NCBI GenBank assembly: GCA_049522255.1
Contig: JBEKOA010000001.1
Location: 4,216 to 68,215, forward strand
Length of the DNA stretch: 64,000 nt
Direction of reading: 5' to 3'
DNA from: Terracidiphilus sp.
Lineage (GTDB): Bacteria > Acidobacteriota > Terriglobia > Terriglobales > Acidobacteriaceae
The position numbers and the translations under genes are program-made. The notes beneath the pieces were generated by a model, which was not told the DNA's origin, did not search any database, and was given only the letters and a program-made list of their open reading frames with translations. This document shows positions 45,519 to 50,051 of this stretch, piece by piece; positions within the stretch are counted from its first letter, which is position 1, and the number at the start of each line of letters is the position of its first letter.

Positions 45519-48353
45519 CTAAAAATTCAACGTAATCTTAGCCGTCAGCGCTCGCGGAGTTACGTAATGCGTGCCGCTGAAGGTGGAGAGGAAGTTATAC
45601 AGCGCGTACTTGTTGGTAACATTGATCGCCGTCAGATCGAGATTCATCTTATAGCGATCTTTGTGGAAGAGATTGTCTTTGCCGATGGAGGCGTCGAAGA
45701 GGTCGCGGGGCGCGATGCGCTGGGGGTTGTGGTCGTTGTCGCCCTTGCCCGGCGCGGGAATGCTGATCAGGTTTGAGGTAAACTGCGAGGCCGGGCAGAC
45801 AGGTTGCAGCCCTTGCGAGGTCATGGTCTCAATCGGATTGCCGGGCGTCGCCTTCACGCCTCCACAGGCGAACCCAGCCTGAAATTCCTGGTCGGCAGTT
45901 AACGGGAGAGCGACACTCGCGCCAGTCACAGGGTTGATGGTTGGGGCTATGTTGGTGTCCACCATTGCTATCGTAGGCTGGCCGCCCGGCGTGATTGAAC
46001 TGTTTGCGCAGGGAGTGTTCGGATCGGTCAGGCCATAGCACGGTGTCGACCCGGCGACCAAGCCCGAGTCATAACGCCAGTTAAAGCCGCCCCAGAGGCC
46101 GTTCAGCGCTTTGCCGCGCGAGAACGTGTATTGCAGGTGGGTGGTCTGATTGAACTTCTCGTCGTGGTCGATGCGGAAAGGCAAGCCTGTCTGGCCGACG
46201 GTAGCACCGGCCCCTGCCACCTGCGGCGGAAAGAAGCGCGCAGCCACCGAAGAGGCGACGAGATAGGCGCTCATGCCATGGAACTGAGGAATATCCGCGC
46301 GCAGGGCATATCCGGGAATCTTCGAGTTATGCCAGTCAATGGGGAAAGTTATCGGCGTGTTACCCAGAACGCTGAAGTCGAAGGCGTTATGGGTGTACTT
46401 CCAAATATATTCGCCGCTCACTACCACTCTCTTGCCGAAGGCCTGTTGAAGGCCTGCATGGAATTCATTCTTGAATCCGGGCTGAAGCGTTCCCGCAACG
46501 CCAGAGGTGCAGTTCAGCAGCGGTGCCAGCACAGCGTTCGAGCAGCCATTGTTCGAGAGCACGAGGTTCTCGTTGAAGGGCGTCTCCAGCGTGCGCGCAT
46601 AAGAGACGCGAAGCACCGTCGTTGTCGGCTTGATGTTATACGCAATGCCAACGCGCGGCTGTGTCTGATTCGCATCGGTCAGGCCGTTGTAAACGTCCTC
46701 GCGCAGTCCCAGATTAAAGAGCCAGTTGCCGACCTTGATCTGGTCTTCCGCAAAGAGGCCCAGTTCCTTTACATCCGTATGGCCCAGGAAGTTATACTCA
46801 CTGCCGCCGCGAGTCAAATCGTAACGCGCGAGAACGGGATTGTAGTTAGGATTCTGGAGCGCTATAACGCCATCGCAAGGCGTCGGACCCGTGGGACCAG
46901 TGTATCCAGCCAGAGGGTTGCCATTTACATCCATGCAGGGAGCGCTGAGCGGATAAGTCGGCTCGACGATGCCCAATTTGTCGTCTTCGTCCAGGAAAGT
47001 TTGCCCGTACTGTGCGCCAGCCTTGAAGTTATGGATTCCCTTTGCATAAGAAATGTCGGAGTGGACGGCGGAGTTGGTCAGAGAGCGATCCTGCGCGATC
47101 GAGGAGGTTTGCAGGTCGGCAGGTCCAAGATCGGCCAGAGGATTGCCGCTGGGATAATAGTTATACTCGTCCCGTCGAACAAAGCCACCGAGATTGAAGA
47201 CGGTGTTATTGCCTATAACTCGCGTGTAAGTGGGCGAAACGTTGATAGTTCCGATCTTGGAGTGCTGGTCGGCATTGCCCACGTTGCCAAAGACCGGGCC
47301 GGCGCTCGCGCCGCCGCTGACTACATTTTGAACATTCAGATTATCGAATGAGTTAGGTGTCTGGAACCACGAGCGGGAGTAATTCACGTCCAGATGGATC
47401 GAATCGACCGGGGTAAAGCTATAGTCCACGCGATCAAAGACATTTTGCTCGTTGCCCTTGTCGTGGAACACCGAGAACTCCGGCGGATCGAGAAAGCGGC
47501 CGGAGTTGAGGCCGTCGGCCTCGATGAAATCTCCCCACTTGCTGCCGCCATAGGCCAGATCGAAACCGGCAGATGCCGATCCGAAGGCGCCATAGGAGGT
47601 ATTGATGCTGCCTGTCGGTTTCGTGACACCCTGACCTGAGCGCGTGGTGGCCACGATCACCAGGCTGGTTTTGCCGCCGTATTCGGCCGGGGGCGCGCCG
47701 CTGATCACCTCGATGGATTGGATCGAGTTAGAGGGAATCTGGTTGGAGAAGACTTTGCTTTGCTGATCGGTGATCGACTGGCCGTCTACGGAAAATGAAT
47801 TGGATGCGTGATCCCCCAGTCCGTGGAAGAGACCGTTGGAGTCGGCCGAAACGCCGGGCGTGGAAAGAGTGACCAGGGAACTGAGGCCGGACGATTCGCT
47901 TTCCAGCGGCACCTTGACGAACATCTCGCGATCCACATCGGTGTGGAAGGTGGGATCGGTCTCGACCAGGTCGCCGGACGACTCCACCGTAACCGTTTGA
48001 GAGCCGCCGGCAATCTCGAGAACCAGGTTCAGCGTGTTTCCCACCACCGAACGAATTTCAAAACCGCGGCTCAAGGAGTTGAATCCGCTGGCTGAGACAG
48101 TGATCCGGTAAGGGTTGAAAGGGATGTTGGCAAAGAGAAACTGGCCGGTCGCGTCTGTGGAGACAATGCGGTCGAGCCCACTGACCTCGTTGGTCAGATG
48201 CACCGTTGCACCGGGAATCACGGCCCCGGATGGGTCTGTGACGGTGCCGCGCACCGAGCCCGAGTTGCTGCCCTCGGCAAGCACATAGAGCGAGGCAAAG
48301 ATCAAGATAAGGATAGAAATTATGCGAAGTGTAGGGCCGTGATGGAACGGCAT
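45519..48353 (-). CDS. TonB-dependent receptor with an N-terminal carboxypeptidase-regulatory-like domain
   Basis: Signal peptide; G.VTDPSGAVIPGATV; plug PAEYGGK; C-terminal aromatic ..KITLNF. Confidence 0.9.
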   Translation of the reverse strand: MPFHHGPTLRIISILILIFASLYVLAEGSNSGSVRGTVTDPSGAVIPGATVHLTNEVSGLDRIVSTDATGQFLFANIPFNPYRITVSASGFNSLSRGFEIRSVVGNTLNLVLEIAGGSQTVTVESSGDLVETDPTFHTDVDREMFVKVPLESESSGLSSLVTLSTPGVSADSNGLFHGLGDHASNSFSVDGQSITDQQSKVFSNQIPSNSIQSIEVISGAPPAEYGGKTSLVIVATTRSGQGVTKPTGSINTSYGAFGSASAGFDLAYGGSKWGDFIEADGLNSGRFLDPPEFSVFHDKGNEQNVFDRVDYSFTPVDSIHLDVNYSRSWFQTPNSFDNLNVQNVVSGGASAGPVFGNVGNADQHSKIGTINVSPTYTRVIGNNTVFNLGGFVRRDEYNYYPSGNPLADLGPADLQTSSIAQDRSLTNSAVHSDISYAKGIHNFKAGAQYGQTFLDEDDKLGIVEPTYPLSAPCMDVNGNPLAGYTGPTGPTPCDGVIALQNPNYNPVLARYDLTRGGSEYNFLGHTDVKELGLFAEDQIKVGNWLFNLGLREDVYNGLTDANQTQPRVGIAYNIKPTTTVLRVSYARTLETPFNENLVLSNNGCSNAVLAPLLNCTSGVAGTLQPGFKNEFHAGLQQAFGKRVVVSGEYIWKYTHNAFDFSVLGNTPITFPIDWHNSKIPGYALRADIPQFHGMSAYLVASSVAARFFPPQVAGAGATVGQTGLPFRIDHDEKFNQTTHLQYTFSRGKALNGLWGGFNWRYDSGLVAGSTPCYGLTDPNTPCANSSITPGGQPTIAMVDTNIAPTINPVTGASVALPLTADQEFQAGFACGGVKATPGNPIETMTSQGLQPVCPASQFTSNLISIPAPGKGDNDHNPQRIAPRDLFDASIGKDNLFHKDRYKMNLDLTAINVTNKYALYNFLSTFSGTHYVTPRALTAKITLNF

Positions 48354-48541
48354 TTCGAACCTCCTGGCGAGATCTGCATATGTGCAAAGCAGGCCGTGGC
48401 AGCAACCGCCGCGGCATCCTCTGTGCGAAGAGTCATCGATCCGATTCCAGAGTCAGTTTGAGGGGAAACGCCGGAGAAGCGCCCGCAATAGGATCATTGA
48501 GCGACCGGTCGAAGACTGAGACGGGAGATCGGGAAGAGGCT

Positions 48542-48856
48542 CTAGCAGAAGTCAGGCGGGGGACGCGTAAAGAGTTTGGGGTGCCAATGCCGGATAACGG
48601 CGCGCGCCTCGTAGACCTGAGCAGCGGCCTGTATCCGGATCAGGACAACCACGGCTGCAACGGCTGCAACCGGCGCAGCCGAGTGCATCGCGATGCAGAG
48701 CTGACAATGGTCCGCATCGCTTTCGATCGCGTGGAAGTGGGCCACTTGCACCACGACCAGCAGAGCCAGCAGGGCCAGACACAATAGAGCTCCTGCCCCG
48801 AAAGCGCTTGGCTTCGGGCGGCGATCTTCGCTCATATGGGCCTGAAATTTTGTCAA
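48542..48856 (-). CDS. DUF2946 (CruR/CutF-like) small protein with CxxC and C-terminal RPPP
   Basis: TM segment, HFH..DHCQLC..MH, ends FTRPPPDFC; directly upstream of the TonB receptor. Confidence 0.75.
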   Translation of the reverse strand: MTKFQAHMSEDRRPKPSAFGAGALLCLALLALLVVVQVAHFHAIESDADHCQLCIAMHSAAPVAAVAAVVVLIRIQAAAQVYEARAVIRHWHPKLFTRPPPDFC

Positions 48857-49004
48857 TCGACCATCCTAAACTAAAGGATACACAGTATTGGACGTCGCTG
48901 CTGCGGTCTGGGATGCTCCTTTCTAACCTGAATTTCTCCAAATTGTGCCCGCCAATGGACAGCTAAGCCGTCTAAACTGTTCAGTTATGAACTGTTTTTG
49001 TTCA

Positions 49005-50051
49005 ATGCGTTGTGCGGCAAAGGCTGCCTTGGCGCTCCTGCTGGCGGTGGCCGCAGCCGGCGCCGCCCAGAATCAGGTCCAACCCCAACCCCAGCCTCAA
49101 TCGCAGAAGCCATTGGCGCTCAAGCCCGACCTGCCCGGAATGGCTACCAATCATCGCCTCATTCTGAAGGACGGAAGTTATCAGATCGTTCGCAGGTATG
49201 AGATTGTGGGCGACCGCGTGCGCTACATCTCCATGGAGCGCGGCGGCGATTGGGAAGAGCTGCCCGTGGATCTCGTTGACTGGGATGCCACGCGGAAGTG
49301 GGAACGGGATCATGCCAGCCAGCCCGAGGAAGAGGCCTCTCCGGCAATGAAAGAAGCTGCCAATATCGACAAGGAAGAGGCCGCCGAGCGCGCCGAGCAA
49401 CTGGCGCGGCGGCCCGAAGTCGCCAAGGGGCTCGAGCTGCCCGATGAGGACGGCGTCTTTGCCCTGGATACATTTCAAGGCTCGCCGGAGTTGGTGGAAC
49501 TGCTGCCGGTCGACCTGGCGCTGAATGCGAAGAACAGACACGGGCTGAGTACGTTGAATCCGCTGGCCGGCGCAAAAGCCAGCCTGGAGTTGGACGGCCA
49601 GCACGCCAAGATTCATCTTCACGTGAACGATCCGGCGATCTATCTGGCGCTGGCCGCGAGCGACAACTCTGAGAAGGTGCTCTCACACGCCCTGACGGTG
49701 GAGACCAAAGGCGCGAAAGAGGTAGCCAACCGCAAGCACGGCGCTCATTCGACTGCTTCAGGGTTTGCCATTGTCCGCGCGGATGAGCGCAAGGCGGTGC
49801 GGATCGTCGGCGCCATTCACATGAGCCCCAGCGGCTCTGTCACCCAGGACGAGAATGTGATTCCCGCCAAGGTCGAGGTGGTGGCCGGCAAGCACTGGCT
49901 CAAGATCACTCCCAACGATCCACTTGCCATTGGAGAATATGCGCTGGTAGAGATCATCTCCGCCTCCGACATCAATCAAACGGTGTGGGATTTCCGCGTT
50001 GACCCGCAGTTGGGAGACAACGAGGGGTCGTTGGGGCCGATCTTCAAATAG
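49005..50051 (+). CDS. Exported hypothetical protein
   Basis: Signal peptide and Q/P linker; long high-GC ORF. Confidence 0.7.
   Translation: MRCAAKAALALLLAVAAAGAAQNQVQPQPQPQSQKPLALKPDLPGMATNHRLILKDGSYQIVRRYEIVGDRVRYISMERGGDWEELPVDLVDWDATRKWERDHASQPEEEASPAMKEAANIDKEEAAERAEQLARRPEVAKGLELPDEDGVFALDTFQGSPELVELLPVDLALNAKNRHGLSTLNPLAGAKASLELDGQHAKIHLHVNDPAIYLALAASDNSEKVLSHALTVETKGAKEVANRKHGAHSTASGFAIVRADERKAVRIVGAIHMSPSGSVTQDENVIPAKVEVVAGKHWLKITPNDPLAIGEYALVEIISASDINQTVWDFRVDPQLGDNEGSLGPIFK

Follow-up and report, generated by a model that had tools for sequence, protein, structure and literature searches.

The leader, the receptor and their transcript

Terracidiphilus sp. (family Acidobacteriaceae, assembly GCA_049522255.1) carries on contig JBEKOA010000001.1 a small open reading frame (ORF) upstream of the gene for a TonB-dependent receptor, and this pair of genes is the subject of the present study. 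We analysed 64,000 nucleotides of the contig (positions 4,216 to 68,215), referred to here as the window, and all coordinates are those of the window. The small ORF, which we call the leader, encodes in order basic residues, a 20-residue hydrophobic helix, HFH, DADHCQLC, MH, a second hydrophobic stretch and RHWHPKLFT-RPPP-DFC before the stop codon (Table 1). An earlier note on this DNA had reported the coordinates of the ORF, its signal or transmembrane (TM) segment, the HFH, CQLC and H residues and the C-terminal RPPP, and direct reading confirmed all of these, whereas the gap to the receptor, put there at 189 nt, was counted as 188 nt from the leader stop to the receptor ATG.

Table 1. Features of the leader-receptor locus in window coordinates (SD, Shine-Dalgarno sequence; AF2, AlphaFold2; MFE, minimum free energy)
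Feature	Position	Strand	Details
Leader ORF	48542..48856	minus	104 codons from TTG 48856 (97 from ATG 48835); stop TAG 48544-48542
N-terminal hydrophobic segment ALLCLALLALLVVVQV (TM or signal-anchor), basic residues before	48740..48802	minus	direct sequence reading; helix in AF2
Candidate metal-ligand cluster	48683..48739	minus	HxH 48739-48731; D-H-C-x-x-C 48712-48695; H 48685-48683
Putative arrest peptide R-x-W-H-x-x-L-F-x-R-P-P-P	48554..48592	minus	RPPP codons CGT CCC CCG CCT at 48565-48554
TonB-dependent receptor, 944 aa	45519..48353	minus	CarboxypepD_reg PF13620 4.6e-18; Plug PF07715 2.6e-6
Receptor SD and start codon	48351..48365	minus	AGGAGG 48365-48360, ATG 48353-48351; direct sequence reading
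C-rich, G-poor, rut-like tract	48505..48595	minus	spans stall site and first ~40 nt past stop
GAGCCUCUU, predicted anti-SD	48534..48542	minus	begins at last base of stop codon; pairs AGGAGGUUC in MFE
Conserved intergenic hairpin GCCGCGGC-N7-GCCACGGC	48393..48415	minus	8 bp, GC-rich, 30-55 nt upstream of receptor SD
Probable RNA 5' end (48856-48863) behind promoter-like TGTGTATCCTT (48885-48875)	48856..48885	minus	contig ends and conservation
Divergent neighbour, secreted 348-aa protein	49005..50051	plus	no Pfam family; invariant H-x3-H-x-H

Homologues of the leader begin with M/L/V-T-G-F/L-Q at the position of TTG 48856, where their start codons are ATG, GTG or TTG, and because these starts align with that TTG the 104-codon form is likely the true one. 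From CxxC to RPPP the window leader counts 43 residues, and three residues follow RPPP. An AF2 model of a 92-aa form of the leader is a helical hairpin with a helix at residues 6-27 (mean predicted local distance difference test score, pLDDT, 79.5), and the N-terminus looks like an uncleaved anchor.

The leader is a real, conserved and transcribed gene. Wetland metatranscriptome contigs from three studies cover it, and contigs from two studies (X1 record 8, X2 record 15, X5 record 25) bridge the leader, the intergenic region and the receptor start. Contigs of X1 and X4 stop at 48863 and that of X2 at 48856; in X1 and X2 the sequence continues into Illumina adapter, a hint that the RNA begins 0-7 nt upstream of the TTG. 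At its 3' end the receptor gene is convergent with a gene for a YdiJ-like FAD oxidase, so that the unit consists of leader and receptor. Leader-proximal contigs are deeper than contigs of the distal receptor; we drew no attenuation from this, since depth along contigs cannot rank a gene's parts and the contigs break near 47940 at loose ends resembling strain variants.

Conservation of the leader and its relation to CruR and DUF2946

Searches returned 378 leader homologues at E <= 0.01, the named ones being from Terracidiphilus metagenome-assembled genomes (MAGs). Six-frame searches found the leader in 33 of 36 other genomes of the genus and, with the window ORF as the single query, in none of 24 neighbouring-family genomes (a set that includes the unpublished genomes G041, G046, G047, G048, G050 and G052). 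A 21-member profile detected the leader in several genera of the same family (17 of 22 other genomes) and in one of ~278 sampled genomes in the rest of the phylum (E <= 1e-5). The set of leaders compared below comprises 105 leaders from 100 loci, and 79 loci were fetched from Acidobacteriaceae/Terracidiphilus MAG records. A TonB receptor of the same type lies downstream of the leader in 78 of the 79 fetched loci; among 20 loci of relatives it is present in 19, and the twentieth (L018) ends 51 nt past the leader. The receptor start could be located for 71 of the 105 leaders (not for the other 34), and 70 of these 71 have an intergenic region of 160-239 nt.

All 105 leaders have the TM helix, HxH and DHCxxC in common and all keep RPPP (105/105), and in an alignment of 21 leaders the residues H, H, D, H, C, C, R, P, P and P are invariant (21/21). 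The spacer from CxxC to RPPP is 43 residues long in 85 of the 105 and 44 in 16, a tryptophan stands at -7 from RPPP in 101, and the tail after RPPP is free in sequence, with three residues in 82 leaders and two to eight overall. A profile search of 1.84 billion cluster representatives (50%-identity clusters) gave 417 matches at E <= 1e-3. Among the best 150 of these 417, the ending is RPPP in 115, RAPP in two and HAPP in one, and 30, many of them apparently truncated, have no R-x-PP-like ending. The spacing could be measured in 109 of these 115 RPPP-bearing representatives [43 residues in 75, 44 in 28, 45 in 5 and 46 in 1], and no CxxC was found before RPPP in the other 6. In distant representatives the sequence from CxxC to the C-terminus is largely free, and R(-9)-x-W(-7)-H-x-x-L(-3)-F(-2)-x-RPPP is retained, with L at -3 in 88 and F at -2 in 84 of 116. 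Two fixed motifs at a fixed distance, together with a conserved segment of tunnel length and a free tail, are the signature of a regulatory nascent peptide and not of a folded domain.

The closest described system is CruR (Bp2923 of Bordetella pertussis, PF11162 or DUF2946), the leader of cruR-bfrG(crtA)-bp2921 (PMC9426467; PMC12914433). Its reported hallmarks are a CXXC, a RAPP three residues from the end with 45 +/- 1-2 residues between the two, an export signal, an intergenic region of 162 nt and a TonB transporter as the next gene (PMC9426467), and the leader matches them except for the Ala of RAPP and the Pfam score, its hydrophobic N-terminal segment being the putative counterpart of the export signal. 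Both are small first genes placed before a TonB-dependent transporter and separated from it by a long intergenic region (162 nt for CruR, 188 nt in the window); both have an N-terminal export or anchor segment (a putative one in the window leader), an invariant CxxC, a tract with more C than G at the 3' end of the leader and a similar spacing from CxxC to RxPP (43-44 residues in the leaders vs 45 +/- 1-2 in CruR), and sequence homology between them can be detected via acidobacterial intermediates. They differ in that the window leader has RPPP where CruR has RAPP, carries an extra invariant HxH and DH before the CxxC and scores under the Pfam threshold, in that its receptor is of the CarboxypepD_reg type with no PepSY gene downstream, and in that the leaders show a bias toward Pro codons forming an SD-complementary CCUCC, which is undescribed for CruR. 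By analogy with CruR and with CutF of Rhodobacter capsulatus, the His/Cys cluster of the leader may bind metal.

The intermediates place the leader relative to DUF2946, for which the gathering score is 23.7 bits. PF11162 is matched weakly by 18 of 21 close relatives, all below this cut-off (best E 5.2e-4), over the half from CxxC to RAPP, and the cut-off is passed by two of 68 distant representatives of the RPPP family (27.8 and 25.4 bits), both of them RPPP-bearing. When 201 genomes of the phylum were scanned in six frames, DUF2946 scored above cut-off in three, and each of the three hits is a small ORF that terminates in RGPP or RAPP and is immediately followed by a gene for a CarboxypepD_reg TonB receptor. 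BLASTP aligned the window ORF with the ORF of locus L026, a DUF2946 leader of 30.3 bits from the same family (E 3e-9, 27% identity over 91 aa), in which DHCPVCMAMHSALP is followed further on by WRFEMASRGPP, and the alignment runs across TM, HxH, DHCxxC-AMHSA-P and RxPP. When the leader profile (A2) was compared by hhalign with that of the above-threshold acidobacterial DUF2946 leaders (A3), the probability was 93.1% (E 3.2e-7); A2 also matches the L026 ORF at 3e-7, and the nearest Pfam-bearing Atlas cluster to the leader is DUF2946 (score 0.92, a lead only). The ORF of L026 (1474-1785, minus) has a near-orthologue of the same genus in L115, which reads WRFEMASRPPP in place of WRFEMASRGPP and is near-identical around the arrest site, and the two represent a natural RGPP/RPPP swap of the arrest core. 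These comparisons indicate that the leader family is a divergent branch of DUF2946 mostly missed by current models. The earlier note had proposed a leader similar to CruR and DUF2946 in a new lineage, with RPPP for RAPP and placed before a TonB receptor, and homology, CxxC, spacing and motif position bear this out at the level of sequence.

The same data bear on an alternative in which the leader product would persist as a small metal-binding protein of the inner membrane, folded as a two-helix hairpin and working with the receptor, for instance in cargo handover or sensing, with RPPP as a structural or interaction motif or as a brake on copy number instead of a switch acting in cis. The helical hairpin of the AF2 model and the second hydrophobic segment, which is conserved in close relatives, would suit such a protein, as would CzcI, a DUF2946-like protein without the proline motif that is discussed as a regulator or sensor (PMC9973294). 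However, the sequence between the motifs is variable in distant relatives while the spacing is fixed at 43-44, the residues past RPPP are free in sequence and number, and RPPP stands at a constant short distance from the stop, before a long conserved intergenic region. In addition, RGPP and RPPP interchange at the same position, the codons of RPPP are biased at synonymous sites (see below), and both CruR and CutF are reported to be undetectable as mature proteins (PMC9426467, PMC9973294), so we consider a stable protein of this kind unlikely.

From the homology, the hallmarks and the synteny, which these computations establish, we think it probable that the leader is a metal-responsive arrest leader of the CruR/DUF2946 kind, belonging to a divergent branch spread across the Acidobacteriaceae that has Arg-Pro-Pro-Pro in place of Arg-Ala-Pro-Pro.

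The RPPP motif, its codons and the RNA

The leader has several features in common with arrest peptides of the RAPP and RGPP types (ApdA, ApdP, ApcA and SecM-like; PMC10951233, PMC10987492, PMC12992588). In each case a small secreted or membrane protein, whose gene precedes the one under control, carries R-x-P-P close to its C-terminal end; the Arg tolerates no substitution in the arrest peptides and is invariant in the leaders, and the segment preceding the core is conserved but specific to the family. Small upstream ORFs of the RAPP/RGPP kind before TonB receptors are reported to be universal in Gram-negative bacteria (PMC12992588). These surveys extracted only RAPP and RGPP and did not catalogue leaders of the RPPP type, and RPPP was tested just as an engineered substitution of Ala by Pro. 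This substitution retained arrest partly in ApdA (12.9 vs 3.0 units) and nearly fully in ApdP in B. subtilis (2.4 vs 1.9 units), random screens yielded arresting RxPP with G, A, S or P at x, and the Arg was found to be irreplaceable (PMC12992588). RPPP is also among the RAPP-like motifs searched in PMC10987492. The arrest of CruR has been demonstrated in vitro, and CruR, like ApdA/ApdP, stalls with the third and fourth RxPP codons in the P and A sites (PMC12992588). For the window leader, the invariance of the motif, the conserved segment from -9 to -1 and the codon bias suggest a stall at RPPP. In 2,167 long ORFs of the genome (a crude set) RPPP occurs at 0.61 of expectation, RAPP at 0.34 and RGPP at 0.05, vs 1.3-3.1 for APPP, TPPP and LPPP.

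The motif could also be read as a plain polyproline brake dependent on elongation factor P (EF-P), which would couple the output of leader and receptor to EF-P activity or growth state without sensing a ligand. In E. coli lacking EF-P the strongest staller of the XPPP type is RPPP (PMC4176338), the PPP stall of CutF is reported as EF-P-dependent (bioRxiv 10.1101/2025.02.05.636593), and the Terracidiphilus genome has genes for EF-P (222 bits) and for a paralogue of it (178 bits). Such a brake, however, leaves unexplained both the invariant His/Cys cluster at its fixed spacing and the conserved tunnel segment, and it does not sit well with the near-orthologue in which RPPP is replaced by RGPP, whose arrest is refractory to EF-P (PMC12992588); we therefore regard it as improbable.

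In the same genome 59 ORFs have R[AGP]PP at the C-terminus, and a TonB receptor comes next in four of these, two with RPPP and two with RGPP. The second RPPP leader, on contig C219 (C219:1863-2132; L024:1369-1695), is 52% identical and lies before a paralogous CarboxypepD_reg TonB receptor. The two RGPP cases, on contigs C166 (L022:1393-1761) and C5 (ORF end 17914, minus), are small ORFs in which RGPP ends 5 and 6 residues before the stop; they have a CCRR-x-G-x-HHC motif in common, lie directly before other TonB receptors and represent a different leader type built on the same principle. In five loci (L017, L068, L069, L091 and L095) two tandem RPPP leaders stand 0.9-1 kb apart before one receptor, with no long ORF between them, and in L068 a DtxR/MntR-like ORF (a judgement by eye) lies upstream.

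The codons of RPPP are strongly skewed. Of the 105 leaders, 73 have CCT as the second Pro codon, 40 have CCC and 35 CCT as the first, and 50 have CCC as the third, whereas CCT makes up 13.9% of the 2,967 Pro codons in a comparison set of 66 receptor genes; CCG accounts for 19-23% in RPPP vs 64% in the PP dipeptides of the receptors. The bias, which these counts establish, is still there after thinning (19 of 23 clusters at 60% identity). It has two consequences for the RNA. It places CCUCC inside the arrest codons (in 56 of 65 unique loci the codons of RPPP include CCTCC), complementary to the GGAGG of the receptor SD, and GGAG is found within -20..-1 of the receptor start in 59 of the 65. It also creates a C-rich, G-poor tract resembling a Rho utilization (rut) site, with C/G averaging ~2 from -30 to +60 of the Arg codon vs ~1 elsewhere in the 65 unique loci; in CruR the rut was mapped to the equivalent place at the 3' end of the leader (PMC9426467). 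In 36 of 59 loci (mean 0.58) partition functions give P > 0.5 for pairing of the SD with the segment from -6 to +21 relative to the Arg codon, and when the Pro codons are recoded in silico to CCG this drops to 11 of 59 (mean 0.22).

At the window locus the SD is predicted to pair with GAGCCUCUU (mean P 0.69, partition function of the 261-nt RNA from leader to receptor). The earlier note had named another segment, TCTCCGGCG (48469-48477, minus), as the anti-SD. This segment is present and as an isolated duplex with the SD reaches -15.1 kcal/mol, but in context the pairing disappears (P 0.00 in the 261-nt RNA) and the segment is unconserved in a 16-locus alignment, so that we rejected it. Unmasking of the ribosome-binding site (RBS) and Rho antitermination are both candidate routes of control. 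It is conceivable, if doubtful, that the same nine nucleotides act both as the Pro-Pro-Pro arrest codons and, in the form of CCN-CCU-CCN RNA, as the anti-SD silencing the receptor 190 nt downstream, so that the ribosome would stall on the silencer itself and, the core being a true polyproline, metal status and EF-P activity would be integrated in a hybrid of CruR and CutF, with at least four such leaders in the genome acting on different TonB receptors.

The intergenic region also contains a conserved hairpin (48393-48415), which was picked by eye before covariation was tested. Across 59 loci 80.2% of its cells are paired vs 32-53% in slid controls, 6 of its 8 pairs show changes on both sides, and its covariation score was reached by 0 of 500 shuffles. 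It has no U-tract, Rfam gave no match at E <= 1 over 48250-49050, and the polymerase may pause there or the transcript may be processed there. The conserved ATGCCGCGGC hairpin includes an ATG that starts a frame of 119 codons (48058-48417, minus), which is out of frame with the receptor here and in frame in some relatives (L007, L012); the frame is probably incidental to the RNA element.

Neighbouring genes and the proposed switch

Upstream of the leader the conserved element TGTGTAT(T/C)CTT stands just before the probable RNA 5' end, its TGTGTAT(T/C)C 8-mers occurring in 30 + 21 of 94 unique upstream regions, and CAGTTTAGACG at 48969-48979, in the divergent promoter region, occurs in ~38-51 of the 94. 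The elements at 48875-48885 and 48969-48979 are probably two promoters or an operator; a sigma-70 scan gave no match to a promoter or consensus. A terminator scan gave one terminator-like site, inside the leader ORF, and no excess over shuffles. A homologue of the secreted 348-aa protein is upstream and divergent in 55 of the 79 fetched loci. The window protein had no Pfam match, and its model had no Foldseek match at E <= 1e-3. Its residues 148-337 form a beta-sandwich whose best matches are CopC/PcoC/PmoD (VIA-align Z 5.4-6.1; mean pLDDT of the model 63.7), which makes it weakly CopC-like and a lead only. A gene for a CsoR/RcnR-type repressor (PF02583, 79.5 bits) lies ~1 kb upstream of the C219 leader on the other strand, and such a gene is also found in 4 of the 79 loci.

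For the metal that would be sensed, copper is the best lead, and a weak one, since CruR and CutF sense copper, a CsoR-type gene lies by the C219 pair, and the divergent neighbour is weakly CopC-like and has the invariant H-x3-H-x-H, a candidate metal site. An arrest peptide could also respond to a signal other than metal, being released by the force of membrane insertion or secretion in the manner of SecM or MifM, or through thiol-disulfide chemistry at the CxxC, in which case the receptor would answer to the envelope or redox state. The N-terminal membrane anchor suits such a mechanism, monitoring of Sec or YidC is reported as common among RAPP-like arrest peptides (PMC12992588), and the CxxC is also a redox motif, the disulfide of CutF having been proposed to add pulling force (bioRxiv 10.1101/2025.02.05.636593). 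Yet the downstream gene encodes a TonB receptor and not a component of Sec or YidC, the invariant residues (3-4 His, 2 Cys and Asp) are classic ligands of soft or borderline metals, the nearest characterised homologues, CruR and CutF, are copper-responsive, and genes for metal regulators flank paralogous loci, as with the CsoR-type gene on C219 and in 4 of the 79 loci. We judge a signal other than metal to be quite unlikely.

A comparison with CutF bears on the direction of the response. CutF, also of the DUF2946 family, is described as having a C-terminal PPP after a basic residue and a stall that is proposed to unmask the SD of the next gene, possibly with involvement of EF-P (PMC9973294, bioRxiv 10.1101/2025.02.05.636593), and the leader shares the first of these features and may share the others. 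The earlier note had ascribed CxxC plus RAPP to CutF, but the motifs given for it in these sources are CxxxC plus PPP. CutF differs further in a cleavable Sec signal, where the window leader has CxxC and an apparent uncleaved anchor, and in standing immediately before a stem-loop and a detoxifying oxidase, with the stall induced by copper and expression ON with metal (same sources). In the window leader the gap is 188 nt and the target is an importer, for which the opposite sign would be expected. A metal-OFF response is favoured because repression of an importer by its own cargo is physiologically sensible.

In the mechanism that we propose, the ribosome would stall when the second Pro codon of RPPP is in the P site and the third in the A site, assisted by the conserved tunnel segment R-x-W-H-x-x-L-F-x-R-P-P-P. 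At that point the HxH...DHCxxC..H cluster, 43-58 residues back, would lie at or just outside the exit port, behind the membrane anchor, and the stalled ribosome would cover a C/U-rich stretch made up of the Pro codons plus the bases immediately past the stop, which is CCUCC in the Pro codons of most relatives and GAGCCUCUU right after the stop in the window. As this stretch is both complementary to the SD and rut-like, the receptor would be ON during the stall. Binding of the cognate metal to the nascent ligand cluster would relieve the stall, as proposed for CruR, the leader would be completed and released, and the receptor would then be turned OFF by re-masking of its RBS, by Rho-dependent termination, or by both. 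A stalled ribosome that masks an adjacent rut and so blocks Rho termination is known from TnaC-tnaA, where the ribosome stalls at the leader end. The proposal shares with TnaC the stalled ribosome over a rut and differs from it in the ligand, which for TnaC is free tryptophan in the tunnel, in the site of the stall, which for TnaC is the stop codon, and in the membrane anchor and metal ligands, which TnaC does not have.

Several results weigh against a metal-responsive arrest leader. We infer stalling, the metal response, its sign and control of the receptor alike from CruR, CutF and the RAPP literature. The window ORF scores 7.8 bits against Pfam DUF2946 (E 7.6), below the cut-off and with no match at E <= 0.1, and the confident helical hairpin of the AF2 model fits a stable, mature membrane protein. 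Nothing ties the receptor to the copper transporters CrtA or OprC: phmmer against all chains of the PDB gave no match at E <= 1e-3, a weak test given how fast TonB receptors diverge, and NCBIfam gave weak generic TonB matches only.

The RNA provides the remaining points on that side. When the stall footprint is removed in silico the SD stays paired (mean P 0.79, with 0 of 59 loci below 0.5), the fold from leader to receptor is no more stable than shuffles (z-score 0.43), and RNAalifold found no consensus either for the whole leader-to-receptor region (16 loci) or for the last 100 nt (59 loci). The RPPP codons of the window, CCC CCG CCT, are atypical among relatives in lacking CCUCC, and GAGCCUCUU starts ~17 nt 3' of the presumed P-site, so that a ribosome stalled at RPPP would barely reach it and a terminating one would cover it. 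The bias toward CCU and CCC could instead reflect selection for slow Pro codons, of which CCC and CCU are the slowest (PMC8129111), or for a rut site rich in C. No Rho gene turned up in the assembly of this genome (98.7% complete, 264 contigs; best TIGR00767 match 53.7 bits), but this is probably an assembly gap, since the 24 other genomes of the genus that were searched for it all have its RNA-binding domain (~122 bits).

The principle of such a leader has already been published for Proteobacteria with CruR and CutF, and what is new here is the RPPP branch in Acidobacteria and not a new principle. In a literature search we found neither an RPPP-type branch nor any acidobacterial member described. 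The supplements of the CruR paper (3 files) contain no acidobacterial genera and no RPPP, and the supplementary lists of EMBO J 2025 (10 files, with one further file unsearched) contain RAPP and RGPP only, RPPP occurring incidentally inside RAPP entries.

Acidobacteria are among the most abundant bacteria of soil and peat, and they encode very many CarboxypepD_reg TonB receptors whose cargo and regulation are mostly unknown. If the leader family is a family-wide nascent-peptide switch, it would offer a handle on what these receptors import and when, and it would extend the principle of CruR and CutF beyond Proteobacteria. A natural RPPP core with RGPP counterparts at the same position would be useful to separate RAPP-type stalling from stalling of the polyproline/EF-P type, and the family offers a natural test of whether arrest codons double as an anti-SD. 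If the leader is merely a diverged CruR that works as in Bordetella, the gain would be the annotation of many small 'hypothetical' ORFs missed by Pfam. Should the doubtful dual role of the Pro codons prove true, it would add a translational layer to the control of outer-membrane import in a phylum for which none has been described.

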